From the NCBI GenBank assembly GCA_003990765.1, contig RBNJ01000071.1:1-44220 (forward strand): DNA of 44,220 bases, in the 5' to 3' direction. The notes under the pieces were generated by a model. The model had not been told where the DNA came from, searched no databases, and saw nothing but the letters and a program-made list of their open reading frames with translations. Shown one piece after another: positions 620 to 29,067 of this stretch. The DNA comes from Jimgerdemannia flammicorona (lineage: Eukaryota). Position 1 is the first letter of the stretch. Each line of letters starts with the position of its first letter. Position numbers and translations under genes: made by a program.

Positions 620-3195
620 GAAGGGTTTGGAATGACATGTCCAAATCAGGAAGCCCAGCAAAGTCCCCGTTTTGAAGAAGATTGTCAGCATTAAGGTGAA
701 GTATTGGTGAAGGGGCCAAGGGTATTGTTTTGGATGCATTTTCTTTACCTAACACTTCAAATTCAGGTGTACCTATTCGATAAATGCAATCTTTTTTAGG
801 GTTGCGCTTGTACTCTGCCTGAATACGGTTTTAAGGACAAACTGCGCAGGAGGCCTGGCCATATAGAGAGACCTATGTATGGTATGAATAGTTCTGTTTG
901 CATGGTACTTTGTAAATTTCCCTTTACATATGGTTAGGAGTGCACTATTAATGAAATAAAAGCAGGCATGCAGCCGACTGACTCTACTGCAATGGTGAAA
1001 TCCCCCTACCGAGATTGTCTCTGCCAATTTCTCCATATTGTAAATGCAATCCACAGCTCTCCACACAGATTGAGGCAGCTACAGATACCCTTGAATCAAT
1101 GGTATATGCTTATTGTGTCCACAGTTAGCTCATAAACACTCAAGCGACATTCTGACCATCAAAACCTCTCCGCTGCAATCATTTTAATGAGATTCGGATT
1201 TTTACTGCACCGTGATTTACACTGATGAGATTTGTATATATATACTGCTAAATTTAAGCTACCATGGTTCCCACTGACAAGATGCCCATAAATGAGATCC
1301 TCTGCCAATAACCACTGAAACTGGTTAGTGGGTACCTCTCCATGATTTGTATTCTATATTGCCCTAGCAGTATACTATTATCATCATTCTGTACTTATTT
1401 GTCATTCATCGCTGTTTGTGCTTAGACGGCATTCAGTTTGTTACAGTAGTACCCATGGAAGAGGCCACAAAACATTTGAAATCACTTTTTGTACCATGGG
1501 CTCATCGGCATCATTGAATTTAACCCCTTATACCATAGGCACCTCAGTATTATTGAAATTATACCTTGCTACTGCTCAATTTCTAAGGACTGCTGAGAAA
1601 GTCCTGAATCCTGTTTGGTACAGAATGCAAACTTTAGTCTTATTCAAATTTCGGTTGAATACTTTTTACTCATATCTTGGGGAACTCAAATTTGCACCCA
1701 ATAATTGTGGGAATTTCAGAGACTGGAGCTCTATTGGCACATATGTAAATCTGTTGATGCACTCATTATTTGTATGCACAATTGCATGGTACATTTTAAA
1801 CAAACTGCATTATGCATCAAGCACATAGCCAGGATTCTGCCCTTGTGTGTGCAGAGATGTCCATCCTGTATTACCATCATGCTGGATGTCAATGGCTTGT
1901 TTGGTTTCTGATATTGAAGAAAAAGCTATGGCCTTGTATCTATACTCAGTGTCATTGTCTTTGAAATTCTGGAATGTATTTCTTATCAGAGTGCACATCC
2001 TATCTCCTTCTTCGAGTAGATTGACAGAGAGAGAGTAGGGGGTATATTTATAACAAATAGGCTCCCAACATTTGCACATAGTGGGGATGGTCACTATACA
2101 ATGTCAGGAATCCTGACAACAATCCTTCCAGATTAAAGCCTCAAAATGCTTTGAACTCCCTGGTTACTATAGATAAGGCCTGTTATTATTAGGAGATATA
2201 TTGGGTGGGATCAGTTAGCTTAATGTCTGTTCATGAACTTACAGAATAGTTGTCGCGTTTTCTGTGAGGAAGTCAGGTGATGAATATGCTCTCATGTGTT
2301 CTGTTTGTGGTCAGGTGATGAACTTTTGGGACATAGGGTCATATGCAGTAGCTTTTCTTAGTTTATCTTAAAACCAAACTAGAACCTTAGAGGTCTAAAA
2401 AAACCCCACTGAATCTTTATTTCAGGTCTTGTTTTGTGGTTGGAGAAGGGGACTTGGTCGTGTTTTTTTGCTCCTTTTTATTTTCGGAGATACATTTTCT
2501 ATGATATGAGGTGGTCACATGATGTTACTTATTTATCGTTTTCGTCAATTTCATTTTCTTCCAAAAAGGTGGCGACAACTTCTTGGCGAATCCTTTCGAT
2601 CACCAGTAAGCCCGCGTCTAGTATTTCATTAACTGAATTCCATGGAGGGCGCGAATATTGGGTCACTTCTTTCCTTAAAGAAAGCGTTTGTATTGCGGGC
2701 CATCGCGGTTTCCTCGGGCCCCAGCGTATCCGACCGACTTGGCCTTTTTAGCAGTGGCTTTTCTTTGTCTACCATTAGCAATGCCTACTATCTCGTCTTC
2801 GTACTGGTGCCAACCTTGCGCCAGTAGACGAGGACCTCATTCGTATATATATCTTTTGGCCTTCTTTTCACAATAAATTGCGTTGAAGAAGAGGTACTTG
2901 ACGTCTGGCTTGGGGTGTTGGATCGGGACTTGGAGAAAGGGGACGTAATCATTGCCAGTTGGATGGCGCGGGAGACGTCATGAATCTGCGAGGTCCTGAC
3001 TTCAGATAGTCCAATCTCGTTTCGGCGGGGACAGAATCAGCCACGTTCTTGAGCATCATCTTGGGGTGGTCTTTCAACTACCTAGTCGATGACCAGCCTG
3101 ATCATTCTTCCGATGATTGTGCACCTTGGCCATTACAAACCTTTCACATGTGATGTCATACTCATGAGGCTTGAGAAGCCTCACAAGTATTTTGG
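620..3195 (-). repeat. Copy 1 of a ~2.6 kb direct duplication; decayed, unidentified coding module
   Basis: Colinear with 7255-9970. Examples: gggtttggaatgacatgtccaaatc vs gggtttggattgacgtgtccaaatc, and near identity of 2880-3145 with 9670-9935. Minus-strand peptide remnants are shared (PICYKYTPY, LIRNTFQNFKDND, LKKIAFI). Confidence 0.9.
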
Positions 3196-3399
3196 TTACA
3201 ATGTCAATATATCACCTAATAGCATCCATATTAAAACCTCTGGGCTTTTTCGCTTTTGCAGGGTTGTCAGACTTTAAACAGTTGCAATTAGCCAATATCA
3301 ATATTACACATTACAATAATGGATTTATATGAGAAGTTGTTGAGAAGGTATTTGGAAATTTCAGCATCATTATTTATAGATTTGAATTCAATTGTATTT

Positions 3400-3401
<2 letters not shown>

Positions 3402-3467
<66 letters not shown>
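3402..3467. repeat. Poly(T) tract (~66 nt)
   Basis: Directly visible homopolymer. Confidence 0.95.
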
Positions 3468-3469
<2 letters not shown>

Positions 3470-5641
3470 AAAAGTATTGTTTTTTTGCGTTATCTACGTG
3501 CTCCCAGTACACTTCACGCTCACACGATGATGTAAGCGCATCGCGGCATTAGCTAATGGCCTTATACAGTGACGTACGCCCATGTTTCGCGCGAGCCACG
3601 CGATCCATTGCAAGAACTCCTCGCAAACCGCCCTTCCGCCTTCTTTTCATGCTTTTATTATGATTTTGTTCATTATTTTTTTCCATCGTTCGCGCTTACA
3701 CGAATTTCCGTAGACAAATACCTATATTTGATCTTTTATTTTTACACAGCCCCCTCCCTTTCCCTTACGTGCCAGGTGCGGTACTGGCCACTCGCATCGG
3801 TCACGACCGGACCACTTCTTTGGTCTATTCTCCCACAGGAACCCCACCAAGGAGCAACCATGGGTCCAATGTGACGATGTCCAATCGGCAGAGTGAGTTG
3901 CAGTATCCCTCCCGATGTGTCAGCGTGTGGGGTCAAGCGGACTGGGTCACCTCGCATGATGCTCTAAATTACCGTTACCTGGGCCGGGTGAGTCAAGTGG
4001 TCGAGTGACAAATGCTGCAGCAACATTCCCTCGGGAATCCTTCGAAAGATACGGATAGTGTTCGGACAATACGAATCATTCCCACACACATTATGATCGG
4101 CGGGGTCTGTAGGGGGGTAATTTAGATGGGTGGACTTAGGAAGGTGACGCGCTATAAGATACATGGTAGTCGACTTCGGGGCAACACCAAGATGGTTGCA
4201 TATATTTCCTATTTTTTTTTTTTTTTTTTTTTTTGTTTTTTTTTTTCAAAAAAAAGGGTTAGATATCGCAGATTGTATGCTACTTTGTTATCACATGTTG
4301 TTAAGTTGGAGTCCGTGAAATGAATTTATTATAATTATATATTAACACTGACGGACATCATGTCCGCGACGCTTGGCACTACAAATTGTGTCACAAACTA
4401 CATTTCAACTCTACCAGGGCTAAGTCGATTGGAGTTCGCAGCGCCATGTGATAAGAAAGGTGGATGGCCCAGCACTACAACATCCTCACCGCCCACTTCC
4501 GGGTATTGATATGATTGAGGAACAAACACGTCTAAACGTCGTCGTCGTCGCTGCTACCTTGAAACTTCGATCGCGACTGAATGCCATCTGGAAATATGAC
4601 CAAATCTATTGAACTGCTAAGCGAAAATCGCAAACCCCCTGCTCACTGATACCTTCAATAGTAAACACGAAAAGGCTGTGTCACACGATTTGTCTTACGT
4701 CTTTGGCAAGCTCTTAAAGGCATCAACTAGTAGAAAATGGACGCCCGAGACAAAAACCAATGCCAAGGCCGATATTGCTTGAAGAGTTCGAAAAATGTCC
4801 AGGGAACCGACTATAACCAGGCTGGAATGGCTTTTTTTTAAGCCTAGGACAGAAATAACTTTCGAAGTGTCTTAGTTCTTCATTATAATATAATTTTATT
4901 ATTCTATGTGATGCAGCCATATTATAACATGTGATTTTTCTATTTCTACGCCCTCAAATGTCGTCACACTTCTGGTGGATGTATGATGCGCCGATCAGTG
5001 CTTTGGAAAACAGCGATCGCCGAGACACGATACACGATACACCGAACAGTCAGTGTGTTGTACAAGTAGTTATAAAAAAATTTCTATCTTGGGGTCGCAC
5101 ATATTAGTTATCACAATGGTGAATATGTTTCCCATATGAAGTGCATTAAATATAGACCAAATTGACTCTTGTAGGCCACGCTCAACCCAAAATTGCATTA
5201 GAATTGACAAATGTATATATGTAGTTCCAAGTGGACTGCGGAACACTTTTCAACCGCTTCGTTTCAGGCGTGGCCTGCGAACTCTTTTTTCTTTGCAAAG
5301 TCGAATATTAGTACGCACTACTTCTCGGCCAGAGCGGTTCTGGCGGGAACATAGTTAAAGAAATGGTGGCGCTTTCCAAAATCAGAAAAATCCGCCTCAG
5401 AGAATTGTTAGCTCGATGCATGCATATAAATAGCCACTCATGCATTCAAATATAGAAAAATGGTGGGTGGCCTGTCGTGCAATCACGGTTGACCGCATGC
5501 CATCCTCACAATATAATTAAGAAGGTGTATTATTTGTGATAAAATTATAAATGTGTATATTTTTAATTAAAATTAAAATGCGTATTATTTAAATCATGCT
5601 AAGAAAGTTCCTGATCAAAGCACCCAGAAATAACAATGCAA

Positions 5642-5704
<63 letters not shown>

Positions 5705-5783
5705 AGTTCTTAATGGGCTCTTGCAGATATACCAAAAGCAAGTCGAGCTAGCCTCCAGACGCGCCATCCACCCAAATGCCGTG

Positions 5784-5790
5784 TATAAAA
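5784..5790 (+). promoter_or_regulatory. Putative TATA box of the secreted-protein gene
   Basis: TATAAAA ~90 nt upstream of ATG 5877, followed by a C/A-rich leader and a good initiation context (CACCATGA). Confidence 0.55.
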
Positions 5791-5876
5791 GCACACATCC
5801 TCAGCACTCATTAACCGACACCCTCATCAGCCCACATCCCAATCTCATACCCTCACCTCCTCTCCTCTCCATCACC

Positions 5877-6356
5877 ATGAAGCCTTCCAACACCCTCGTC
5901 CTCCTCATCCTCCTGGCGATGCTCGCCACCGTTGTCATGCCCACCCCAATCCCCATCCCCCACGGGAACAATGCCGGCCTCCAACGCAGAGGACACGAAG
6001 AGAGAACCCCTACGAAAGGCAAAGGGAAGAGGACGAGGAAGGGGAAGAAGCCTCATCATCCGTCCAGGAAGCACCACCATGATTCCGACGAGTCATGCCA
6101 CTCCTCCGACTCCGACCACTGGAGACCCCGTTTCTCTGATTGCGACTCGTCCGACCATGACACAACAGATTGCGAGACCGACCGCCGCACCACAGATTGC
6201 GAGACCGATCGCCACACAACCGATTGCGAGACCGACCGCCACACAACCGATTGCGAGACCGACTGCCATACAACCGATTGCGAGACCGACCGTCACACAA
6301 CTGATTGCGAGACCGACCGCCACACAACTGATTGCGAGTCCGATCGTGATTGGTAG
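5877..6356 (+). CDS. Small secreted tandem-repeat protein, 159 aa (effector-like)
   Basis: True start is probably ATG 5877 (CACCATG). MKPSNTLVLLILLAMLATVVMP is signal-peptide-like. LQRR is a Kex2-type dibasic site. KGKGKRTRKGKK is a basic patch, followed by a His/Asp/Ser-rich segment and 7x TTDCETDR[H/R]. The frame is open, CpG is retained, and repeat variation is mostly at third codon positions. Confidence 0.85.
   Translation: MKPSNTLVLLILLAMLATVVMPTPIPIPHGNNAGLQRRGHEERTPTKGKGKRTRKGKKPHHPSRKHHHDSDESCHSSDSDHWRPRFSDCDSSDHDTTDCETDRRTTDCETDRHTTDCETDRHTTDCETDCHTTDCETDRHTTDCETDRHTTDCESDRDW
6162..6347 (+). repeat. 27-bp coding tandem repeat x7
   Basis: Unit ~ACAACCGATTGCGAGACCGACCGCCAC, encoding TTDCETDRH. 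Confidence 0.95.
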
Positions 6357-7254
6357 TCCGATCATCACCGTGAAATTGATTGCACTTGAACCCAACAAAC
6401 GTGCGATGGCCAACGTTGATGCGTATGAGCGAGCTTTTCAAGGTTTTAGTTAGCATGTTTTTTCATTGCGACAGGTGTAAATTGTATCAATAACGACATC
6501 AAATCTACGAGGTTTTTTTCTTTTCTTTTCTTTTCGGGGGCTATAAGCTACCTTCGCCTTTGTAAATTCTGACAATAAATGCAATGAAAGCTAAAAATGT
6601 GGAATCAGCAGTGTCGTATTTATCTCGTTGCTCAGGTGAGTTCGATCGGCATTTCCGCCAGCGAAATTAGCAGACAGTATTATCATAACTGTATAGTCCG
6701 CCAAAATCACGGCTCAGAATAAAAATACAAACACAAATCAGCATGTAATTAAAATGGTTTATGTTTCTCTACCAGATGCATAATTCGGGCAATTGAATTT
6801 ACCTTTCATTTTATTTTATTTGCATTCGCGAATAGAATTATAATGCATTTTGAATACTTGATAAATTACGCTTCTCAATGCTTAGACCGTCTGAAATCTT
6901 GAAGCACAGAGTCCTTGCTTGACCCGACCCTATCCGAAGAGGATGACAAGAAAAACTTCTCATAAATACTTATCTCAAATGCCGCAGAAATATGATGTCG
7001 TCGTCGCTGTCTCCCTGGCTCTTGAGTTTACTACCGTACCTCTTGTAGGCGTCCCAGACAAAATATTGCTGCTTCGTGTCGACGCATCTTCGGACTTTTG
7101 TGAACTTAGTCTCATTCGAACCGTCTTCATCACGATTTTATTTATTTATTTATTTATGGGTATCTGCTCTGAACGCCCGGATACAACCAGATATCCTTTG
7201 AAAAAATATGATTGCAGAAGGATATATCTAAACAAATATATTATATCAGACTTA

Positions 7255-9970
7255 CATAGGGTTTGGATTGACGTGTCCAAATCGGGGAGCCCGCGCAGAG
7301 TCACCGTTTTGGAGAAGATTGGCGAAGAGGCCAAGGGTATCGTTTTGAAGGACATCGGCGAGGTGCTCTTTACCTAGCACTTCAAATTCAGGCACACCTG
7401 TTTGATAAACGCGATCTTTTTTAGGGTTGTGCTCGCACTCGGCCTGACTACATTGAAGGACCAGCTGCACATTAGGCCTGGCCACGTAGAGAGACCTGCG
7501 TTCAGATGTGTAGTTCCGTTTGCGTGATCCTTTCTAAGTTGCCCTTCACCCATGTTATGAATAAAGGCAGTTTGAATTTCTTTCATGCCCACGGCATACA
7601 CTCGGCTGACTATACTGTAATAACCTACCGCAACGACGAAACCCCCCCACGAAGATTTTCTCTGGCAATTTCTCCCTGCTGTAAAGGCACTCCACAGTTC
7701 TGCACGGATCAGGTCAGCCACAAATGCCCGTGAGTCAATGCTGTTGCCAACAGGTAGCTCGGTCATAAACACCTTAGCAGCATTCTGACCATCAAAGCAC
7801 CTCTGCGATCATTCAATGAGATTCGGATTTGTACTGCCAATCTCCGCCGCCGTGATTTACACTGACGATATTCGTACTGCCAAGTTTATGCTACCATGGT
7901 ACCCACTGACGAGATGCCCATAAATTACACCTCTCTGCTGATAAATGCTGAAATCACTTCGTGGGTACCTCGCAATGGTTGGTATTCTAGGTTTCCCCAT
8001 ACAGAGCTCTATAATCACCATTCTGTACTTAGTGTCATTCATCGCTTAATCGTTGTTATTGTTTTGTGCTTCGTCCTCACCGTCATTATCGCTGGTCTGC
8101 ACTTCGTCGTCATCGTCATTCTGTACCTAGGTGTCGGTCATCACCGTTCTGCGCTTAGTCGTCATTCATCATTGTTTTGTGCTTAGTCGTCATTCAGTTT
8201 GTTATAGTAGAGCCAACGGAAGAGGCCACGAAACACTTGAAATCAACCGCCTGCACCGCGGGCTCATCGGCATCATTGAATTTAACCCCTTGTACCGTGG
8301 GCACCTCGGCATTATTGAAGTCACCTTGCTAAAGCTTGATTTCTAAGGATGTCCTGGATCCCGTTTGGTACAGAATGCAAACTTTAACCTTTTTTGACTT
8401 TGTCGTTCTCTCTCGCCAAATTTCGACCAAATATATTTTACTCGTACCTTGGAGGACTCAAATCTGTGTCCAATAGTTGCGGAAGTTTCGGAGGTGGGAA
8501 CTCCACTGGCACGTATGATCTGTCGATGCACTCGTTATTTGTAAAACAAACTGCATTATGCATCAAGTACATTGCCAGTATTCACCCTTGTGTGCGCAGA
8601 GAGGTCCCTCACATTACCACTATGCTGGGTGTCAACGGCTCGTTCGGTTTCTCCAAAATCCGTGATACCCATTGCTTCGAAGAACAGGTAATGGTCTTAG
8701 TCAATGTCGTTATCCTTGAAATTCTGGAACGTATTTCTTATCAGGGTGTACATCCTTTTTCCTTCTCTGAGTAGGTCGATGGAGAGAGAGAAGTAGGGGG
8801 TGTATTTATAACAAATAGGTGTGTGGTGATGGTCACAATACAATGTCAGGAATTCTGACAACGATCCTTCCAGATTAAAGTCTCGAAAGGCTTCGAACTC
8901 CTTGGTTGCCGTGGATAAGGCCTGTAGTTGTTGGAGGTTGTATTGGATGGGATCGGCTAGCTTAATATCTGTTGATGAACTTATGATGGGCATGTGTTCA
9001 GGTGATGCTCCTAACGTATATACGTAGTGGTCACGTGCTATGTAGGTCTGTGTGGTCAGGTGATAAACCTTCGCGACATAGGGAAACTTTTCTCGAACTC
9101 AACTAGCGCCTATTCTTCATCCGCTTCTGACTATGATGAACCTTAGAGGTATAAGCCAAACCCACTAAATTCTTATTTCAAGTCTTGTTTTGTGGTTTGG
9201 AGTAGGGGAACTTGGTCATGACTTTTTGCTCTTTTTATTTTGGGGAACTACTGCTTATACATTTTCTTGATTACTTGTTATACGATGTAGGGTGACCACG
9301 AGATGTTACTTATTTATCGTTTTCGTCAAGTTCATTTTCTTACAAGAAGGTGGCGCCGACTCCTTTCGATCAAGTAAGCCTGCGTCTTGTATTTGTAATA
9401 ACTGAATTACATGGAGGGTGCGGATTTCGGGTCACTTCTTTCCTCGAGGAAAGCGTTTTTATTACGGGTCATCGCGGTTTCCTTTTCCCATGTCCTCGGT
9501 GCCCCAGCATATCCGACCGACTTGGCCTTTTTAGCAGCGGCTTTTCTTTGTCTGTCATTAGTGATGCCCACTATCTCGTCTTCGTACTGGTGAAATTTTT
9601 CGCCAACCTTGCGCCAGTAGACGAGGACCTCGTTCGTATATGTGTCGACCTTCTTTTCACAATAAATTACGTTGAAGAAGAGGTACTTGACGTCTGGTTC
9701 GGGGTGTTGGCTCGGGACTTGGAGGAAGGGGACGTAATCATTGCCAGTCGGATGGCGCGGAAGACGTCATGAATCTGCGATGTCCTGACTTCAGATAGTC
9801 CAATCTCGTTTCGGCGGGGACAGAATCAGCCACGTTCTTGAGCATCATCTTGGGGTGGTCTTTCAACTGCCTAGTCGATGACCAGCCTGATCATTCTTCC
9901 GATGATCGTGCACCTTGGCCATTACAAACCTCTCACATATCCATGAAGCTTGAGAAGTTTCACAGGTATT
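7255..9970 (-). repeat. Copy 2 of the ~2.6 kb direct duplication (better CpG retention)
   Basis: Colinear with 620-3195. Has an expanded acidic-coding internal repeat at ~8020-8200 (minus strand VQNDDDDEVQTSDNDGEDEAQNNNND). Homology ends where the LINE 3' end begins. Confidence 0.9.
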
Positions 9971-12900
9971 CTCACTATTGTACTCCTGCATTTATTACCA
10001 ATCAGTCTATGATATATTAATACAGATCAACCCTTCACCCAATCCCACAGAGAGCTCCCCACCCCTCCATCCTTCCAGAAGAACACCACCCCCCCAGCCA
10101 CCCCAATCCTCCCCCCACTCTGCCCACAAATCCTTGCTACAAGCCCCCAATAGAGACCCCCTTGGGGTCCCCACTCCTGCTACTATTTATTCAAAAGCTC
10201 CAACACCAATCAGTCTCACCTTACCACCCAAACCCCAAGTGCCAACTGCTGGCCATTCTCAAAAACATACAGCCAATATCTAGCAAACCCAATCCAAATG
10301 GCCAGAGCCCACCCAACTATCAACTACTCATTATCAACCCCTCCAACCAGTCTTGCCCAGAGGACAGCCCACCTCTCCTCCACCATCTGCTCAGGAGGGT
10401 ACATCTCCAGCCAGCCTTCAATAGCCCTCTAGAAGTCCTCTAATATCTCACACTTCTCTAGCCAATATTCAGAGGTCTGAACCACTCTCTCTTTCTATCT
10501 GATATTAAAGCACTTCTCACAATCCAAGGCATTCTCTTTCACCAGATACTCTGACTGAAAGTTCAATATTACATTGTGCTGCAGAAATCTCTATTATACC
10601 ACCCAGTACTTGGGCAGAAGTTACTATGCTACCAACTTATTCTATAACCAGATATTAGCCCAGTTCCACCCTTTACAAATATTCACCACCTGTTAAGCCT
10701 CTGGCTACAAATCTCTCTCTTGTTCTTGAAGATACTCCATATTATTCTTAAGACAGAAATTATCTACTAGTATACTTCCCAACAGAAGATAGTCCCACCT
10801 CCACATCTGAGATCTCCAGTCCTTCTCACTCTCATTATCTCACTAGCAGATACTAATATGATGGGCCCCATCAACCATCTCCCATCAGAAGCTCCTATAG
10901 TGCATCTTCTGACTTCTCTTAAGTATCATCAGAGAGAACAAGTCACCAGATATACCTCTGAGAGAGAACCATATCTTCTATACTCTCTATATAAGAGGAA
11001 CCTACCCTCAACCCCTTAGCTCACTAGCTTACTTCAGCTACTATATCCTCAAGCAGTGTAAGTACTTGGTAAAGTCTACTAGACTAAGGCCCCCCTAGTC
11101 TACCAGTAATATCAACATCTTCCATCTAATCTGATTATATTGTCCAGCCCAGATCTAAGTCCTGACTATCTTCAGAAGCCTCTTTACTACCTATACTAGA
11201 AAGTCCAGATAATATCCCAGATATTATAGCTTAGATAGCTAATATATATTCAATATCATCACCTGTCCTACCAGAGAGATATACTGACCTCCTTAGTCCA
11301 GGAATATATTCTCCCACTTCACCAATTATTACTCTCACTATACTCTAAATAATAGAAAGCTATAATTGAGAAATAAATCCCCAAATAGTAGACCATCTCT
11401 CTAGCTGAGACAATTGTTCCAATCACATTCCTACCTACTATTCTACCTTCTAACATCAGAGTCTTATACTTATATCAGTTAAGTTTGGCTTTTGAGCACT
11501 CTTTATATTATTCTACTACTTTCTTTAATATTGCTATATTCTCTATAGAGTCCAGTCCAACCACCATATCATTGGCAAAGGCTCCCACCTTCCAATTCAC
11601 CCTAAGAATATTCAACCTCCCCACCTTGTGTCAAATTCTATCCAATAGAGACTCTAAGAAAAGAGTATAATAATTAGCAATAGTAGATCACTCTGTAATA
11701 CCCCTCTACTCAGAGGGAAGAAAACTTTCCAAAATCTATTTATCAGAATAGCTATCTGACTCCCCTCCAACAGACTGATCAAGGATCATTAGAATCCTGA
11801 GGGAACTTCAATATACTTCAATACCCCCTTCAGCCATACTCACCAGACCCTATTATATACCTTTTTCTGGTCTAGAAATACTAGATAACTATCTACCCCT
11901 TTAGCTTGTATCTCCTCAATAACTCCATAGACTCACACCATCTCATCTCTAATTAAATAGCTACTAACAAGGCCTCTTGACTCCTCCTCCAGTACTTGCT
12001 GAGTTACTCTCTATAACCTGACTACTAATATCTTCATAATTAACTTGCAATCTATATCTAGAAGTATAATTGACCTCCAGTTCTTCCACTTTTCTCTTCT
12101 CCTCTTATCCTTATACAACAAAGCTATAAGCCCCAGACACTATCCTCCAATTCAAGCTCCAGAGCCAATAACTTCATTATATATCTATATTATCTTCTTC
12201 AATACTATCTTTATGTCTGCTATTCTCTTCCAGAAATTTCAGGACAAGCTATCTTTCCCAGAAGCTATGCTAGGACTCATTATTACCAATATCTAAAGAA
12301 TCTCCTCTCTTTGAACTACTACTCTAAGTTTTCTCAGACTCTCTACCAGATCTGAGTATCAGTTCTCCAGTTACTACTCAATGTCCAGTATACTCTCCCC
12401 ACTCTCCTTCTCACTCCACAATAGTCTCCAATACCCACTCAACTGGCCTAGGATTTTCTAAGTCTTCACTGCTATCTTTTCTAACTCATTTAATACTTTA
12501 TCTCACTGCTGTCTCATCCTTCTTACTTGAAGTCTTGATAGAAACTTTGTAGACCATTCTCTCTCCTTCAAGCCCTGCCACTGCAGTTAGACTACTATAT
12601 TCTTCATCTGCACATCTTTTTCTTATCTTAGTAAACTCTGCAGCTCCTCTACCTCAAGTCTAATCTGCTGAACCCTCTAATCTCTCACTTTCTCATTCTC
12701 TAATAGTTCAGTCTATTCTATCAATAACTCTTCCAACCAATGTGAGGCCCACCATTTATAGTCTCTTCTCTGAGCACTCCTCACTCTCTCAGTCTCTCCC
12801 TAGAACCATTGAACATTAGACCTCAACTACTATTATTGATCCTCAATAGCAAGTCCTTCTGCCTACCAACTAAGGATTCTGGAGTTAATGTCTACTACTC

Positions 12901-15541
12901 AGTCATCTTACAAAGGGGGCTCATCCAACAAGAAAGTGTTCAGATACTAATGTTTGGATCTCTTCCCACTTTCTCCAGATTATTCATATCTCAGAAGACC
13001 TCAATGGTCAGATTATAAGTATTATACTATCTCTAATAATTTCCAGACATCTCTTCTCTAGTACTCAGCAGTCAGGATCCAGTCAATCCTTGAGCCAAGC
13101 CCAGTTACCCAATATATATAAATCTAGTGATCTCCCCACACTTATTAGCCCATATCCACTAGAGAGCTTAGTCTCTCAATTTTCTCTCAGTCTCACTTCT
13201 TCTAGACAGTTCCCTTCCACCATCTGTTCTATTCATCCTTCTATCATAAAACATACATATTAAAGTTTTCACCCAAGTAGTCAATCTCTATCTCTATCAG
13301 AGTATCTAAGTCCTATACTCTCCTTATCCACTCTAAGTGGGTCTCTCTTTCTATAGAGCAATAGTAAGATCCAACAACTACTGGGCCCCAGCCTGGTCTC
13401 TGCCACCTCTCCTAAACCACTTAACCCCCCTAGTGTCTAATGTCCCCAATATCTCCCTTCTCCTTCCAAACTAAAATATCCACCCTGTCTCTCTATATAG
13501 CTACACCCCCCCCTCTCCATTCTCTTGTCCAGTCTAATATATCTAAGTCCTCATCACATCTAATATTCTGTAGTAAGAATAAATCAGCATCCAGCTCTCT
13601 TAGTTAGCAGAAAATATTTTAATACTATACTGCTCCCCACAATCTATTAATATTCAGAGAGAAAATCCTAGTTATACTATTTATATTGAATAATATTTGA
13701 AGAAGAACCACCTGCTCTATAATTCCATACTCACTATATCACCGGCTACATCCAAGTTTTTTTTAGCCTCAAGTTCATCTACCTCTTTCTATTAAGTATC
13801 TAGAGCTACCAATACCTCTAGATAGTTCTCTCTATCCTATGTCTCTATAGAAGACTAGTATTTCTCACACACTATCTGCTATTTTTCCAATCCCTTTCTT
13901 GGGCTCTATAGATAAGCTGTGCAATTATTTATAATTGCCAGAAGTACTGCCTCTCTGTTGGTATCCACCTCATACTTCTCTACCTTCAGCAGGACTGCCA
14001 TTAACTCATCTCAGAGCTTTTACACTATCTTCTCTTCCATAAGATGGTATCCTAATATACCTTATCAATAATATAAAAATCAATCTCCTCTAACTCATCA
14101 GCTGTAATATTCATCAGTGTCTTCCACAATTATTTCTCATCTTCAATAGCCTTCTCTACCCTCAGGGCCATCTCCTACCCTCCTACTCTCTGGCCTCCAT
14201 CAGTATTTGATCTTACTGACTCATTCTAGTTCTTCTCTAGTATATTCTATAGCTCTTTAGTCTCTCTTCCCCTGGTGGAGACCCTATACCAAACTCAGGC
14301 CCCCTCTGTTATCACCTTATCTTCAGCCACTATATTCTACTCCTGAACTCTACCCCCTCTCAGGGCCTTCTTCTGAGCTATTCTCTTCTCTCCTGTTCAG
14401 GTACTAGCTCATAAATCAACTCTTTCAGTAATATCTCCCTCTTCTATACTTTCTTTCAAACTTATCAACAGATTCTTCTATTTCTGTCTCTCTTAAGCTC
14501 TCTTCTAAGAAGCTTGATCTAGTTATACTCTCTTGCTATTACCAATCTCTACTACTGTCCTAGTCTCAAACTTCTTCTAGTCTAGTCTTCTTCTCTCTAC
14601 TACTTTAGTCAGATCCCCCAATATCTCTAGCAAATCCTCCTCCTCCTCAGATATTCCCTTTACTCTTGAGATCTTGTACTCCACCAGATACCACTTTAGT
14701 ACTACTAGCCAATTTCTCTCTTTCTTAGTATTCTTCTTTCCTACCAGCCTCACTCTGATATCCATATCTCCTATCCTAAACTCCATACTCTTCTAGACCC
14801 AGAAACTGATATCTACAATATCTCCATACTCCTTGATAGTATCTATAATTAATCTTCTGACCTCCTCCTTCTTCACTGTTAATATATTAGCTACTATCAG
14901 CTGAATCATCCAGAGGTCTCAGTATAAGTATTGAGCTATAGAGATTGCCATCCTCCTGATCATCACTTCTTTCTCCAATATTCTCAGTATTAAATTCTTC
15001 TTCTCAAAGTCTACCTCCACTCCCTCAAACTCATTCAGGAACTTCCCTAAGACTGCTCTCTTCATCTTCTAGACTAGAAGCTTCAGAACTATTTTTACTA
15101 TGACTGCTAAGCCCCAGAAGTACAAAGTGACTATAAATTCAGATACTGATTTCTTGAGTAATAGTACTATCATCAGGCCTATCACACTATCTACTAAGTC
15201 TCTAGACTTTATGCCTCCCCTCTGCCCAGACCCTCTATCAGCTGTCACATCTGGATTTTTTTCCAGATTAGTAGTTCTCCCTCTATCAGCAGTCTCTCTC
15301 TCTTCCCCAGTTACTACTCTCCTAACCCTACCACCACTACCACCCTGAGCAGCTTCTCTAGGCTCTACAGTTCTCATCTTCTTCTTGTCTCTCTATAGTC
15401 AGCCTTCCAAGCCCACTAACTGATCACTAGCCTTGACCTTATTAGCAAAGCTCACTCTCCCAGTCTCCTGCCCACTAGTGCCTTGTCTTTTACTATTGTC
15501 AACCCTATATCTACCCAAATGAGAGCCCAACAGACTTCTCC
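9969..15541 (-). mobile_element. Degenerate full-length L1/Tx1-like LINE, copy A (older)
   Basis: ORF1 remnant (NLEKNPDV..LLKKSVSEFIVTLYF) is homologous to copy B. APE start (RIFSLNIN) is near 13684. RT motifs: GAFANDMV ~11570 and SAQKPNLT/AKLN-type segment ~11500. The 3' end resembles that of copy B (tcact..actcc..tttatt..gtctatga). Many TAG/TAA stops. Confidence 0.85.
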
Positions 15542-18500
15542 TTTTTTTTTTTTTATAGTCACTTGGACTCCATCTTTATTACTAGTCTATGAATAAGTAT
15601 ATAGTTTCACTACCCACTACCCAATCTCCATAGGGGAGCCCCTCTCCACCCCCTCATGAATAAAGATCACCCTCTCACCTACCACTCCAACTCTTCCCCC
15701 TCTCTGCCCACAGATTTTCTCTACCAAGTAGTGCCTCTAACCACCCTGCAGCCTCCAACCAAGCCACCAGCCTGTCAAGGCATCTTCCATAAGCCTATGC
15801 CACTACAACAACTGGTCTCCTAAGCCCTGTCTCCTCTTATCCTCAAAAACAAATAGTCAGTGACTGGCCAGCCCCACCCAAATGACCAAAGCCCAGTCTA
15901 AGGTAAGCTACTCCTTTCCCACCCCCCCTATCAAATGATTCTTCAAATCCTCCCACTGCCCCCATACTTCATCTCCCCTATGCCATACCTCTAAGCAAAT
16001 CTCAATGGCCCACCAAAAGTCTCCCAGCACCTCACACTCTCCTAGCCAATGTTCTGGCATCTGTATATAGCCCCCTTTCTGCCCTACATTAAGGCACTCC
16101 TCACAGTCAAAGCAACCCCCTATGACAAGGTGATCTGAGCAGAAGTTGAGTATTACATTTCTCCTCAGCATGTGCCACCAAACCACCCAGTACTTCAGTG
16201 GCATCCACTTTCTTATTGCAGTACTCCAGGTCCAAACACCATATCAGTTCTACTCTTCTCCAATTCTGACTCCTTGCCAACCACTAGGCTACAGATCTAG
16301 GCCCAGTCCCCTTTGGCATTCCATTCCATCACTAATGTTGAACTCAATTAAAGGAATGCCACTCAACAGAATACGATCCCATCTCCATATCACTAGGTCC
16401 CAAGCCACCTCCCCTTTATTCCCCTGCTAACAAATTCCAATGTGGTGCACCCCCTCTACTATCCCCTACCAGAATCCTTTATATTGCAATTGTTCAGTGT
16501 TTTGAAGTCCAACCAATGAAAGGAGATTGCCAGTTAAGCCTCTTAGTGATGACTGCCTCTCCCAGATCTTCTGCAGTAGTGGAACCCAACCACCTCCTCT
16601 CAGCTCCACTGCTCTCTTTAGCTACCATGCTCTCAAGCAGTGTAGATGTTTTGGAAAGTCAACCAGCTCAAGACCACTTCTAGCCACTGGTAAGGATAAG
16701 GTCTCCCAACTGATCTGACTCTGTCTGCCAGCCCAGATCTATTCCTTTGCCAACTTTATCAATCTCTTCACCATCTAGGCTGGGAAGTCCAGATGATAAG
16801 CCAGATACCATAACTTTGGCAGCCAATAGACATTCAAAACTGAGATACACCCTGCTAGAGAAAAGTGCCATCCCCCCCAACCCCACAGGGCCTCCTCCCA
16901 GATTCTGATCCTCTGCTCCCACCAAAGCCTGGGCAGAACTGACCCATAGACTAACAAATAGATGCCCAAGTATCACACTGTCTCACCTGTAGGGACGATT
17001 GTTCCTATAATCTCTCCTCCCACCAAGCCATTGCCTAGCACCATTGTTTCACACTTGTACCAATTAAGCTTAGCCCCAGAGTTCTCCTCATACCACTCCA
17101 CTGTCTTCTTGAGCTCCTCAACATCAGCAATCGATCCCAGGCCAACTACTATGTCATCCGCAAAGGCCCCAACTTTCCACCCAATATCAAAAACAAAGAG
17201 TCCTACTATCCTCCACCTAATTCTGTCCATCAGGGGTTCCAGAGAAAGAGTATACAAAATGAGAGACAGTGGGTCCCCCAGGGTACCCCCCTACCCAGGG
17301 GAAATATTACCCCTCTATATCCATTATACATGAGTGCAGCCCTACTCCCTTCCAGTAGGCTGACCATTGCTGACCAGAATTGGCACAGAACCCCAGTTCT
17401 ATCCAGTACTTTTGCCAGCCAGACTCATCACATCTGGTTATAAGTCTTCTTCTGGTCCAAGAAGACTAGATGCCCATCCAGTCCACAGGCCCTTACCCCT
17501 TCAATAACTCCATGTACCCAGGCTGTATCATCCCTAATGAGCTGACCACCCACAAATCCCCTCTGCTCAACACCTATGACTTGCTGGGCCACCTTCTGTA
17601 GCCTTGCAACCACCACCTTAGTTACCAACTTTCTGTCCATATCTAACAACATTATCAGTCACCAGTTCTTTCAATCCTCTTGCCTTCCTTTGTTCTTATA
17701 AAACAGTACCACCAGCCCAAGATTCTGCTCTCTCACCCATCTCTCTATTTGTAGGATAGAGTCACATAGTGCCGTCATCTCTCCCATCACATCTGGGACT
17801 CTCACTATTCGCTTCCAAAAGTCCCAGGGCAGACCATCCTCCCCAGGTGCCATCTCTGGTATTGTCGTGGCAAGAACCTGGTGGATCTCCTCCTCCTGTA
17901 CCAGTATCACTAAGTCACCTAGCCCCTCTACTCATAGTGGGTGTCAATTCTCCAATGTTCAGTCAATGGTAGCAGTATCCACCCCACCCTCCTTCTCACT
18001 CCACAATCTACTCCATTGCTCCTTCAATGATCCAAGAATGTCTTGTACACCATGTACCAGTATACTATCAGAGTCAAGTACCCCTTCCCACCATTGCTGT
18101 ACCCTTCTTGCCCTAAGGGCCCTTATAAGAAACTTGGAAGGCCTCTCTCCTTCCTCCATATCTTGCCAATGAAGCCTTGCTGCCAAGCTTTGTACCCTCA
18201 CCTCTTCCTCTTCCCACAGTATCTGTTGTAGTTTCCTAACCTCCATCTTCACCCTCATTAGTCTCCAATTTTCTTCCCTCTCCAATATCACCAGCCTTGT
18301 CCACTCCTCCAGTAGCCTGGCCAATCTAGTAGAAGTCCAATGCACTCTTTGTCTTCTCTGCTTCCCTACCTTCTTGCCAGCCTCACTCTAGTAAATCTTG
18401 GCCATCTCTTTCATCCTCATCCACCAAACCCCAATTAAGGTACCTTTTTGCCACCAGTTCTCCACCCTCAGCTGAATGTCCTTAGCCCACTCATCTCACT

Positions 18501-21300
18501 GGGTCTTGTCATTTAATAAAGAGGAATTTAGGCACCAATGTCCAGGCCCATCCCCACTCCCCCCAAAGTACTCCTGACCCAAAAGCCCCCAGTAATCCAA
18601 CCATGGACACCATTCTACCTCCAGAGATTTCCAAACATCTAAGCCCCAGCAACTGGCCATTAGAATCCAGTCTATCCTTGTCCCCAGGCCCCCTGCTCAA
18701 TGCATATAAACCCTCCTATCCCCCCAGTACTCTCTGCCTACATCTACCAGTACACTTAGTCATTCTACTTCCTCCCATGCTGTCAGTCCTCCACTCCTGC
18801 TCTCAGCACCCCATCCTCCATCTATTCTATTCATCAGTATATCCCAAACCATATTGAAATCTCCTCCAAGCATATCCACCCCAGCCTCTGCAAGGATCCC
18901 ACTCTCCTGGAGACCCTTCACCCAATCTACATGTTCACCCCATACAATAGGGCAATAACAGGAGCCCACCATAACTGGCTCCCAGCCTGCATGAATCCAC
19001 TTACCCCAGACCAGTCTCTCCCCCTAGCTCCTCATATCCCTAATCTCCCCTCTGCCTTTTCAAACCAGAATTCCCACCTTGTCCTTCCAAATTACCACAC
19101 CTCTCCATTCCTTTGTCCATTCCATCCTATCGAAATCATCCTCACACCTAACATCCTGCAAGAGGAAGAGATCAGCCTCCAATCCCTTCAGCTAAGTAAA
19201 AATGTTTCTATGTCTAGCAGCTCCCTGTAACCCATTCACATTCAAAGAAAAAATGTTAGTTGTACTGTTCATAATGGAATACATTTTGTTATCAATCAAT
19301 TCTTACTACTCTATGTTCATCTCCTTCTGTGCCATGTTCAGATTATGTTCTACAGTCTCCTCCTCCTCTTCAGCCCTCTGAGCCTCTAATCCAGCCAGCA
19401 GGTCATTCATCTCCCCATCTGCCTTTTCCTCAAACTCCTCCTAGTACTCTAGGCAGGCCTCCTGCCAGAGCTGTAGTCTATGATACCTGTTCCAGCAGTA
19501 TTCAGCCCTCTCCCCAGTGATAACTGCCATCTCTACCTCTCGCTCCTTATCTATCTCATACCCTTCCTCCTCCAGATATACTACAAGGATTTCTGCCTTC
19601 AACACCTTCATCACTCCATCTCCCTGCAGTATCTGTACCCAATGCTCATCACTCATCACTCTCAAGTCCACCTCTCCCAACTCTTCTGCTGCTAGGTTAT
19701 TCATTATCTGGCATATCCAAAGTAGGTTCCCTACCTCCTTCCCTCCAGGAGTCACTGGCCTCCCTCCATCCAGCATCATGGTGTCAGCCTCAGTGCTTGC
19801 AGACTCATCTCATATCTCCGAGACATCCACCAGTTCCTCCTCTCCAGCAGCCACTACTTGTCCCCTATTAGCTACCTCTGGAACTCTGAATTTCACCCTC
19901 TGGGCCCTCTATATTGGCACATCCTCCACCACCCTATTACAGGAAGCTGGGCCTCACCTAATAAGAGGAGTTGGGATAGAGGAGTCCTCCCAGTCCACCT
20001 CCCAGATCTCCAGTCTACCATCAGTATATGGGTCATTACCAGTCACCTCCTTATCCTTCCTTGTCTCCTTCTCGACTTTCCCACCCCTCTTGCTAGTCCA
20101 GACACTGGCTTTGGTCCCCCCTGTACTCTTCATCTTGCTCACATCCTCCAGTGATCTGCCTTCCAGCTTAGCCAGCAGCTTCCTCTATCTCTTATGCCCC
20201 TGAGCCCTTTCCCACTACTCCTTGTCCACTCAAATCTGCTTTCCATCCACTACCTCCAAGTGTGTCATCTCTACAAAAGCCTTTCAAGCCTTCACTTACC
20301 ACTTTATAGCACCACTCAACTCTTCTAGTGCCTCCAATAAATCCTCCTCCTCCTCCTCACTTCCCTTCACCCTTGTCACCTTATACAAGATCACACCCCA
20401 GACCATTACTGAAGGCCAGTCCCTCGCCTTCCCAGTAGTCTCTTTTCCAGCTAGCTAAATCCTCACATTCACATCACCAGTCCTGAGCAAGATCTCTTCC
20501 CAGACCCTGAATCTGATATCTACCACCTCTCTATATTCTGCCATGACTTCTTCAACTCTCCTTCTCATCTCTACTACTATCACCATGGGCACTCCTTTCA
20601 CTAGTAGTTGGACCACCCTGGGATCCTACTTCAGGCAGTGCACTATTAGAACATATACCTCTCCAACTACTAATCCAACCTTCAGCGCCTCCTCCAGTGA
20701 CTCAGCCTTTTCAAAACCCATCTCCACTCCCTGCAGTCTCTTCAAAAACTTCACTGACACAGCTCCTGCCACCTGCTTAGCAATAAGCCCCAGCACCATT
20801 TTCACCATTATTACTAAGCCTTGGAAGTACAGTGTAACTGCAAATGCTGAGATCGATTTTTTGAGTAATGGGGCCACCACCAGGCTTGTTATGCCATCTA
20901 CCAAATCTCCTTGTCTTCTAAGCCTCAACCACTTAGCCTCACCATCAGCCATCACATCTGGATTTTTTTCCAGATTGGCAGTCCCATTGCCATCAGCAGT
21001 CACACTCCCTCCAGCCACTACTCTCCCAGCTCCACTACCCCTCCTTCCAAGGGCTACTCCCCTCCACACTGCTGCCTTCTTAGTCTCCTTGCCCTTCCTC
21101 AGCCAGCCCTCTAGCCCTGATGTCTGCTATCTCCCCTTCACTATCTCTGCAAAGCTCGCCCTCCTGGACCCTTGGCCTCCATCACTACTTCTATGTCCAC
21201 CTGCCAGCAGTCCTCTCAAGCCCCCCCCAGGCCTGGGCCTCTCCCCAACTGCTGTCAGTTGAAAGTGCTTGGGCCACTCTACCCAGTATGCACCTCAGAT
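15542..21300 (-). mobile_element. Degenerate full-length L1/Tx1-like LINE, copy B
   Basis: Poly(A) tail is the T run at 15542-15554. ORF2 from ~19272: APE motifs (FSLNVNG, GGDFN, RLD), RT motifs (APGEDGLP, LLDMDRKLVTK, EQRGF, FLDQKK, GDPLS, GAFADDI, SGAKLN) and a C-terminal C..C..EH..C. ORF1 spans ~19300-21200. The 5' boundary is approximate. Confidence 0.92.
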
Positions 21301-21399
21301 TGCCTGTTGGTCATCATGTTGTTAGTCTCTTTTCTCCAAAAATAATGTTGTAAGTGCTTTTCCAAAGGTTGTATAACCTGAATAGTACCAGAGAAAGAA

Positions 21400-23015
21400 T
21401 ATTTGACCAAGTGATGGCTATTAAGTATTGTCAGTCAATAAATAATTATATACTATTTTCTCAAATAGATAGTATGTAATCTTCAGCCTTTTTCAACAGC
21501 AGATGATCAGGAGTTTCATCAGTTTATCAAGAGTCTCAATCTACAGTATTGTCTCCTATTCAGTAATCATACAAAGAATCTTATTATGAAACAGTATACC
21601 TCTTATAAGATTGTTATTGTAGCAATCTTATAGAATATACCAGGCTCTATTATATTGACTGCAGATAATAAGAGTTTTATTATAAGTGATAGTTATCTTG
21701 GACTTATAGTATACTTTATTGATACTTAGTGGATTATGCAGAGTATTATCTTATCTATTGAATCAATACCAAGTCTGTATATCAGCCTTCTCATCAAAGA
21801 CACTATTTTGGAAATTCTAAAAGATTTTGGTATTAAATCTAAACTTCATGCCTTAGTGACAGATAATGTAATAAATATAGTAAAAGAATTCAGACTTATT
21901 GATGAAAAATTATCTCAGCAAATCTATCATATTTGGTATTTAGCTCATGTATTCATCTTACTATTCAAGAGAGATTTAAGATCAATAGTATTGATGATAA
22001 ATATGATAATGATAATAACATTATCAGTAATCTAATTATCAAACTCTGACTTTACATCAGTACTATAAAAAGAAGTCTAAAGCTTTTGTATAAGCTTTTA
22101 GAACTTTGTAAACACAATAATGAGCCATCTATTACACTTTTAACAGATGTACCAAATTGCTAGAACTCAATTTATAAGATGATTGAAATAGCTTTTAAAG
22201 TATAGTGATTTTTTTAAAGAAAGATCTGTTCTTAAAGAAAATAAACTTACAATAAATAATAAGGAGACAATAACTGACATATCTCAGAATCTTCAACTAT
22301 TTGATTTAATAATATAAGTTTTATCAGTACATAACTATCTAATGTTATATTGAGTTTACAATATATATATAACTTATCAGAAAATTAGATAAAAACTGAA
22401 TTCTATATAATGAAAATATAATAGCAAAACTCCACCAATATTGAGAAAAGTTTCCAACTACAATACATCTAGTAACAATACTCTATCTATATTAAAAAAT
22501 ACAGCCACTAATTCACCAAGTTGATACAAAAACAACTGTTAACAAACTTATCAAAATATATATTAATCTTCTCAAACATCATGCAAAAATATATATTGAC
22601 AACTATATGACAGTAACAAAAAGTAATATACCTCCACCTATTATACTAAAGAAATAAAAGTCTGATATATCTACTTGGGAGAAATTTATAGAAAAAACTA
22701 CTTTATCATCAGAGTAGTCTGCTAGACTTATCTCAAAAACTAATATTCATAACTCTGATTATGAAGTTATACTAATATAACAGTATTATATGATAGTAAT
22801 CAGTCTCATATATTAGAGTAATAGAAAATCCATGAAGCAGAGTTTTCAATACTTACAAGTATGATATATAATTGCTTTACTATTATAGCAATAAGTATAC
22901 CTTATGAATCTCTTTTTTCAATTACTGGTAATATTATTACAAAAAATCATAATTGGTTAAGTCTATAAACAGCAAAAGCCCTTCTATGTTTAAAGTTATA
23001 GTATAGCTTTAACTC
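21400..23015 (+). mobile_element. hAT transposase relic, 5'-truncated
   Basis: Motif remnants: LQPFSTADDQEF, SYLGLIVYFID, LVTDNVINIVK (TDNASNM), IWYLAHV (RCFAH), DVPNC*NSIY (DVPTRWNST), and dimerization domain LE**KIHEAEF...ESLFS...TAKALLCLK. Confidence 0.88.
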
Positions 23016-23504: not shown

Positions 23505-24795
23505 TATCTGAGCCCCATGGGCAACATAGGCAACATGGGCAAGACAGACAAGATAGGCAAGATGACAAGATGAGCAATATGGGCAAGATGGGCAGATGGC
23601 AAGACAGGCGACATGAGCAAAACAGACAACACAGGCAACATGGGCAACATGGGCAATACAGGCAACATGGGCAACATGGACAACATGGGCAATATGGGCA
23701 ACACAGGCAACATGGGCAATATGGGCAACATGGGTAGGCAAGATGGGCAAGACAGACAAGATGGACAAGATGGCAAGATGACAAGACAGGTGATATGGGC
23801 AAGATGGGCAAGACAGGCAAGACACAAGATGGGCAAGATGGGCAAGATGGGCAAGATGGCAAGATGGCAAGATGAGTGACATGGGCAAGATGGGCAGATG
23901 GCAAGACAGGCAATATGAGCAAGATGGGCAAAATAGGCAAAACAGGCAAAATGGGCAAAAACGAGCAAAACAGGCAAACCAGGCAAAATGGATAACACAG
24001 GCAACACAGGCAACATAGACAATACGGGCAACACAGGCAGGCAATATGGGCAACATGGGCAGACAATATGGGTAATATGAGCAATACAGACAATACAGGT
24101 AATATAGGCAAGACAGGCAAGATAGACAAGACAGGCAAGATAGCAAGATGGGTGACATGGGCAAGACAGGCAGATGGCAAGATAGGCAATATGGGCAAGA
24201 CAGGCAAAACAGGCAAAATGGGCAACATAAGCAACATGGACAACATGGGCAATATGGGTAATATGGGCAATATGGGTAAGATGGGCAAGATGGACAATAT
24301 GGGCAATACAGGCAATATAGGTGGACAATATGGGCAACATGGGAAATATGGGCAATACAGGCAGACAAGATGGGCAAGATGGGCAAGACAGACAAGATGG
24401 GCAAGATAGCAAGATAGCAATATAGGCAATATGGACTGGCAAGATGGGCTAGATGGGCAAGACAGGAGGCACTAATAGAGGTAGGTCAGGTGTACTAGAT
24501 GCCAAGTACTTGAGGTGGTTGGGGCTCACAACCTATACTCACTGAGTGGGGTAGGCTGGGTAGGAGGATCTAGTTACTTAGGTAGTGAGGTTGCAACTTA
24601 CACCCTAAAGGTGCAAGGCTGGGAGTGAGATTGCAACTTATACCCTAAAGGTGCAAGGCTGGGAGTAGGTTGAGATTGGGGTAGAATTGGACTACTGATG
24701 TTGTATAAGGATATGTGGCATATTATAGATAGTTAATAAATGAGAAAAACTAAAAAAAATAAAATAAAATAAAAAATAAAAAAATAAATAAATAA
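23505..24795 (+). mobile_element. Putative non-autonomous retroposed insertion containing a VNTR
   Basis: Flanked by an exact 17-bp direct repeat ATCAAAAGTGAGATACA (23488-23504, 24796-24812). Ends in AATAAA (24735) plus a ~50-nt A-rich tail directly before the second copy. Confidence 0.6.
23517..24465. repeat. 9-bp minisatellite (ATGGGCAAN / ACAGGCAAN), roughly 100 degenerate units
   Basis: Directly visible. It generates spurious low-complexity ORFs in most frames. Confidence 0.95.
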
Positions 24796-28644: not shown

Positions 28645-29067
28645 TAGTGCTCCCAACGAATCGAATTGAATCAAATTTGGCCCAAACTCGATTTGATTCG
28701 ATTGAATCAAGGGTCCAATTCAATTCGATTCGAATCAAATCAAAGGTCCAATTCAATTCAAAGTTCAATTCAAATCTTAATTTTCAAAATGTAATAACTC
28801 AACGAAAACTCATCTAATTTAACGTATTTTAGCTTATTAGATTCACCATATTAATGTGATTCTAACAAGTGAAAGTATATTAGATTTAGATAAGTTTATG
28901 CTGAGTTATTACATTTTGAAAATTAGGGTTTAAATTAGACCCTCAATTCAATTCGACTTTTGATTCAATTCAAATTGATTCAAATTGAAAAATCCCCAAT
29001 TTGATTCGACTCATTTAACCCTCAATTCGATTCGATTCAAATTAATTCAACTCATTTGGGAGCACTA
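28645..29067. mobile_element. hAT-type MITE with foldback structure, inserted in the Gypsy pol
   Basis: TIRs TAGTGCTCCCAA / TTGGGAGCACTA. 8-bp TSD CTGGCTAC / CTGACTAC. Subterminal TTCGA/TTCAA 5-mers. Internal inverted repeat TTTTCAAAATGTAATAACTCA / TGAGTTATTACATTTTGAAAA. Confidence 0.92.

Follow-up and report, generated by a model that had tools for sequence, protein, structure and literature searches.

The SP7-like effectors are described, in the part of PMC11333574 available to us, as restricted to Glomeromycotina, with a KR island closing each repeat, an intron before the first repeat and a D+Y+K+S+G content of 75-80%. The DELD family of Serendipita indica comprises, according to the accessible portion of PMC3192844, His/Ala-rich helical proteins that contain no Cys and end C-terminally in RSIDELD, and Mmt1 is a fungal metallothionein-like protein placed in cell walls by the corresponding section of a review (PMC9036806). 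The host considered here, Jimgerdemannia flammicorona, is a member of the Endogonales and a putative ectomycorrhizal partner of Pinaceae, and Jimgerdemannia zygospores possess a hyphal mantle fused to the spore wall (both from the available part of PMC5729711). That the DNA should come from a plant symbiont, as an earlier note based on the sequence had implied, was borne out. The Endogonales represent a lineage tied to early plant-fungus symbioses, and to our knowledge next to nothing is known of their secreted proteins. We analysed a 44,220-nucleotide stretch of this genome (the window), in which a continuous, intronless open reading frame (ORF) on the plus strand at 5877-6356 encodes a protein of 159 aa. 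Its sequence indicates that it belongs to an apparently unannotated, lineage-restricted family, which we take to be real and class with the small repeat proteins that mycorrhizal fungi secrete; the family, its subfamily series and a map of its retrocopies are the contributions of this work. The features of the locus are as follows.

5641..5703, plus strand: T/A homopolymer tract upstream of the promoter, read from the sequence; most promoter-bearing paralogs likewise have A-runs upstream.
5783..5792, plus strand: TATA box (GTATAAAAGC); GTATAAAAG occurs in 11 of 12 promoter-bearing loci and a T>C variant in one.
5819..5876, plus strand: putative transcription start and 5' UTR, placed by the starts of retrocopies and promoterless copies.
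5877..5942, plus strand: probable signal peptide, aa 1-22, by hydropathy, helix and family conservation; cleavage site uncertain (Pro22).
5943..5990, plus strand: propeptide TPIPIP...LQRR, with a putative Kex2 site after R38 (LQRR = aa 35-38).
6015..6050, plus strand: Lys/Arg patch KGKGKRTRKGKK (aa 47-58), which matches the monopartite nuclear localisation signal (NLS) pattern and contains a second KR.
6054..6161, plus strand: His/Asp/Ser linker (HHH-DSDESCHSS...SDCDSSDHD), common to subfamilies A, B and C.
6162..6350, plus strand: seven 9-aa Cys/Asp/Glu/His/Thr repeats (27-nt units), by unit alignment and TRF.
6357..6592, plus strand: 3' UTR, conserved across subfamilies, with AATAAA at 6574-6579 and a probable poly(A) site at ~6592.
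7258..9970, minus strand: decayed, multi-piece gene-like neighbour, with a second copy at 622-3191, by blastn; present at three places in the genome.

The window gene is real and undecayed, with a TATA box and a poly(A) signal, and the ORFs that overlap it in other frames are shadows of its repeat. The leader has its highest Kyte-Doolittle mean over 11 residues, 3.36, starting at residue 7, and residues 5-19 form the only helix in the AlphaFold model of the protein. Most family members have Ser before TPIP, in place of which subfamily A, that of the window protein, has Pro22, and signal cleavage may for this reason be shifted in subfamily A. R38 is invariant in 14 of 14 aligned members. The monopartite NLS pattern K(K/R)x(K/R) is present in all 15 family proteins examined, and HHPSRKHHHD of the window protein occupies aa 60-69. 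TRF reports the repeat at period 27, with 6.8 copies, 90% match and a score of 291, and the Cys codon TGC is kept in 7/7 units. The leader, dibasic pro-site, basic patch and hydrophilic repeats listed in the earlier note were all recovered in the translated ORF; its seven copies of TTDCETDRH stand as to number, but only four units are exact, the others reading TTDCETDRR, TTDCETDCH and TTDCESDRD. Its description of an intact gene among decayed neighbours likewise agrees with CpG observed/expected ratios of 1.09 for the gene and 1.06 for the window's THR1 exon, against 0.04 for the LINE-rich block at 10000-21500.

The gene is flanked by two copies, 70-76% identical by blastn, of the broken minus-strand gene-like sequence listed above, for which no Pfam family match was obtained. 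Parts of this neighbour also follow family paralogs on contigs C3037, C5599, C3614 and C7166, and owing to this co-duplication with several members the family spread in part by segmental duplication. Elsewhere in the window, positions 10000-21500 hold nested LINE-like elements on the minus strand with a GC skew of ~-0.5 and strong CpG depletion, 23517-24466 holds ~105 copies of a degenerate 9-nt repeat with several frames open, and 28716-28987 a 270-nt self-inverted repeat with arms 75% identical. The homoserine kinase (THR1) exon lies at 38807-39541 on the plus strand, and an RNA polymerase Rpb3 exon at 41900-42631 on the minus strand; the former matches, at 100% identity, a protein that its source assigns to Jimgerdemannia flammicorona.

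Contig searches of the Jimgerdemannia genome yielded at least 22 distinct family loci, a lower bound among which alleles or assembly duplicates may be counted, and thereby the paralogs with differing repeats that the earlier note had proposed to look for. Conserved across the family are the leader, the TPIP motif, R38 with its LxRR-like site, the basic patch, the promoter and both UTRs, while the tails were expanded separately from different micro-units into five types.

Subfamily A (window, L002, L003): tail of the 9-mer TTDCETDRH.
Subfamily B (L004-L008): tail of the 7-mer TSCSDHD/E.
Subfamily C (L009-L011): tail of the 7-mer TCESEPE.
Subfamily D (L012, L023-L026): tail of the 4-mers CDDP, CDDD and CHHD.
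Subfamily E (L027, L029, L031, L035): basic chain, 27% Cys.

The tail of subfamily B closes with a single HTTDCDTD unit, the motif that is expanded in A, which suggests that the arrays arose by separate slippage in a common tail. A tree built on the 5' UTR and N-terminus of 21 of the 22 loci (L013, whose start is missing, was left out) recovers the subfamilies, except that L012 stands away from the rest of D, and groups every retrocopy next to its subfamily. Twelve loci bear promoters, nine of these having complete ORFs, two being cut by contig ends and one having an early stop. Four further loci (L014, L028, L029 and L031, one of them a fragment) are promoterless from the point at which retrocopies begin and show no clear poly(A) tail or target duplication; recombination, read-through retrocopies and assembly chimeras are candidate readings of these. 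L028 and L029 are tailless and run on into 3' flank of the parent type; LINE coding DNA immediately precedes L028 and L031. The seven window repeat units give a pN/pS of 0.12, from pairs that are not independent; as pN/pS between retrocopies and parents ranges from 1.05 down to 0.10, mutation bias can mimic selection.

Five loci (L007, L008, L009, L025 and L026) are processed retrocopies with the marks of LINE activity, in that they have no promoter, start at the mRNA 5' end, end in poly(A) (5/5) and are bounded by target-site duplications of 15-18 bp (4/5; L009, for which no duplication was scored, ends at a contig end). These five and the four other promoterless copies start at the homologue of window position 5819, ~35 nt past the TATA box, and the retrocopies, colinear with their parents, terminate in 21-59 A's just after AATAAA, the tails starting no more than a few bases from the homologue of 6592. 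The L026 retrocopy (contig C54, ~26197 onward) spans 811 bases with its tail and two ~15-base target copies, its parent subfamily being that of L024. Decay of the retrocopies is dominated by C>T/G>A changes (86 of 99 substitutions, versus 12 of 39 in three promoter-bearing pairs). The five processed retrocopies establish that family mRNAs exist, are polyadenylated and intronless, and have both ends mapped, and the poly(A) tails, four accompanied by target duplications, show transcription in heritable nuclei. As none of the five derives from subfamily A, the transcript ends of the window gene itself are assigned by homology. Short mRNAs are more easily retroposed whole, and the family retrocopies do not prove unusual mRNA abundance; in a small control, two GAPDH loci and one S3Ae gene had no retrocopies. 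The 14-mer at the family transcript start has 29 genome matches, of which 15 lie on new contigs and none of these 15 in family members. Nine of the 15 (L081, L083, L086, L091, L092, L094, L095, L097 and L098) fall, at position 1501, in a repeated element with a LINE-like antisense translation. This overlap is probably chance times copy number; otherwise, pairing between LINE RNA and the mRNA 5' end would be conceivable.

The sequencing-run record for the window gene lists no RNA run, and three runs with a small share. Runs X1 and X2, which are only guessed to be RNA, give contigs without joints that extend across the 5' UTR and ORF (5833-6356) and have loose ends matching subfamilies B, C and D. 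The main records of these runs carry depth figures of ~950-3,500, contig depth being no expression level. The residues of X1 match L002 and those of X2 a variant of L002, neither carrying the window allele, and for this reason the two runs do not establish expression of the window copy. Positions 5462-5731 are uncovered in both (5632-5712 were skipped as repeat), a gap that was not counted as evidence.

Protein, structure and metagenome searches, with Jimgerdemannia as the Endogonales assembly covered, returned no homologue outside the Jimgerdemannia genome. Pfam gave 0 families for the window protein and none above cut-off for five paralogs, profile A2 had no match among longer proteins, PDB sequences and metagenome contigs gave 0 matches each, and two ESM Atlas queries gave no usable match, a blank that signifies neither novelty nor absence. 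The sole word-index match, P0002, was rejected as a chance TDRH repeat without a leader; the sole HMMER match of profile A2 among 1.84 billion representatives, P0003, was rejected as an unrelated low-complexity repeat aligned to profile positions 16-41 only. Among the accessible titles and abstracts searched, none describes the family; the part of PMC12574304 available to us makes no mention of it. By exact sequence 0 of 10 family members occur in the protein collection, which does include THR1 of the same contig. A family that is amplified and transcribed is yet seemingly absent from public protein sets.

Everything after transcription is inference. C+H+D+E make up 47% of the window protein's mature chain and hydrophobic residues 2%; across the nine complete promoter-bearing members the ranges are 47-85% and 2-5%. 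Unit sequence and length vary by subfamily, while the composition and one Cys per unit with acidic residues are kept, and this suggests that function depends on composition. In the acidic members the Cys recur at a strict period of 9, 7 or 4, with few CC or CxC clusters, and polyanions (L024) and a 27%-Cys polycation (L027) stand behind the same promoter and UTRs. AlphaFold returned no fold for the window protein (mean pLDDT 49.4, pTM 0.15; a low-confidence model from 11 sequences). A beta-solenoid or ice-binding fold finds no support in that model, and subfamily D is without Thr. The kept composition, the periodic Cys and the sharing of one promoter by acidic and basic members lead us to favour, tentatively and with somewhat less than even confidence, lineage-restricted, secreted, disordered polyampholytes of the wall or matrix that would bind cations via Asp/Glu/His and be cross-linked through Cys. 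The leader would direct the protein into the secretory route, where Kex2 may cut the propeptide after LQRR; the Lys patch could then hold the protein on wall polyanions, and the Asp/Glu/His tail bind cations (Ca, Zn, Cu, Fe). Thiols are oxidised in the secretory route, and single, evenly spaced Cys tend to oxidise there, which would leave carboxylates and imidazoles as ligands and turn the Cys into interchain cross-links, possibly with the basic Cys-rich paralogs, the product being a metal-loaded coat or cement. The mantle of Jimgerdemannia zygospores and the wall-located Mmt1 are consistent with this reading. Against it, an NLS would account just as well for the basic patch in all 15 proteins examined. 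An unlikely extension is that the acidic members (CDDD, TSCSDHD, TTDCETDRH) and the basic Cys-rich ones, as disordered chains of opposite charge, are secreted together, condense and are cured by metal ions and disulfides into a mantle or sheath cement; if true, the glue of the zygospore mantle or hyphal sheath would be the fungal equivalent of the protein glues of animals. It would also amount to a metal sink that resembles metallothionein yet has a leader and lies outside the cell, in an early-diverging fungus living in symbiosis with plants.

A close rival, possible if doubtful, is a soluble metal chelator, secreted or held in the vacuole lumen for scavenging, storage or detoxification, which would resemble metallothioneins or Dld1 and keep its Cys partly reduced. 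It overlaps the wall or matrix reading, some metal binding being likely under both; the interpretation in the earlier note is supported in part, its metal-binding alternative fitting better than the SP7-like one. The C+H+D+E content of up to 85% and the HHH and CHHD motifs speak for it, as does the example of Dld1, a His-rich protein of metal homeostasis that a root symbiont secretes (PMC9610748, in the part available). Members L012, L023, L024 and L027, with 15-27% Cys, lie within the 13-35 mol% of metallothioneins, but the window protein has just 8%, singly spaced, and metallothioneins are described as cytosolic and nearly pure S-donors (accessible text of PMC12508003 for both), whereas all aligned members carry a hydrophobic leader, which would take them into a route that oxidises thiols. 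In a scan of 11 related promoters, the Mac1 and Zap1 motifs were each found in 0/11 and an SreA-type motif in 1/11; an Ace1-like motif occurred in 8/11 (5.6 expected) and an MRE-like motif in 6/11 (2.3 expected), neither being present in the window copy. The basic Cys-rich member is also left unexplained by a chelator. The same promoters held a CCG-N3-CGG palindrome ~160-170 nt upstream of the ATG in 4/11 (L005, L023, L027 and L035) against 0.3 expected by shuffle, the promoters being related; it is altered in the window copy.

Rather improbable is a symbiosis effector that enters host cells and nuclei and acts there, a disordered repeat protein converging on SP7. The putative partnership with Pinaceae, the leader with NLS-like patch and hydrophilic repeats, and the multi-copy, lineage-restricted occurrence in repeat-rich surroundings, as in the available descriptions of SP7-like and DELD genes, are consistent with it, and N-terminal pN/pS is near or above 1 in several distant promoter-bearing pairs. 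The SP7-like nuclear effector put forward in the earlier note did not hold up, however: KR is absent from the window repeats, D+Y+K+S+G is 36% of the window mature chain (29-60% across 15 members) instead of 75-80%, there is no intron, the subphylum is the wrong one, and across the family the tails tend to be rich in Cys, His and Asp, up to 85% of the mature chain. Periodic Cys, moreover, suit an oxidising extracellular space, and Kex2 could cut at the KR of the subfamily A patch, with loss of its sole K(K/R)x(K/R) match. Retrocopies need expression in inherited nuclei, which is less expected of an interface-only gene, though this would weigh little in a coenocytic fungus.

Acidic Asp/Ser-rich proteins template minerals in animals, and the templating of a hyphal or spore mineral phase, for example calcium oxalate or phosphate, would suit the polyanionic Asp/Ser-rich tails (~40-45% D+S in subfamily B), but it leaves the conserved Cys and His and the basic member unexplained and is very unlikely. 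A KEP- or RiPP-type precursor of secreted repeat peptides, also suggested previously, is scarcely credible even though a leader and a dibasic pro-site are present and nearly identical cores follow a conserved N-terminus, as KEPs need Kex2 sites between repeats (PMC6339444, available part), while tail RR occurs once in the window protein, twice in L003 and not at all in 13 of 15 proteins examined, and the subset of window frames scanned gave no tailoring-enzyme Pfam match.

Because the repeat units are short and can be synthesised, metal binding and cross-linking can be examined directly, with no need of fungal culture, and retrocopies allow transcript ends to be obtained from DNA alone. Set beside the known systems, as far as the available parts of their descriptions extend, the family shares with KEPs internal repeats and, probably, a signal peptide, but misses the Kex2 sites between at least three repeats by which those are defined. 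With SP7-like proteins it has in common a basic patch, imperfect hydrophilic repeats, multiple copies, disorder and a mycorrhizal fungus as host, and its hydrophobic leader is a candidate counterpart of their signal peptide; it differs in its periodic Cys, intronless genes and repeats without a KR island, and it resides in an Endogonales host, with no sequence match found. Like DELD proteins and Dld1 it is a lineage-specific, multi-copy family of small, probably secreted His-rich proteins of a root symbiont, encoded near transposons, whereas, compared with DELD, it is Cys/Asp-rich, non-helical and without RSIDELD. Like fungal metallothioneins it is Cys-rich, nearly devoid of hydrophobic residues and expanded by internal duplication, with Mmt1 offering a wall-located precedent; it departs from them in its leader and pro-site, in the dominance of Asp, Glu and His, and in the singly spaced Cys of the window protein.
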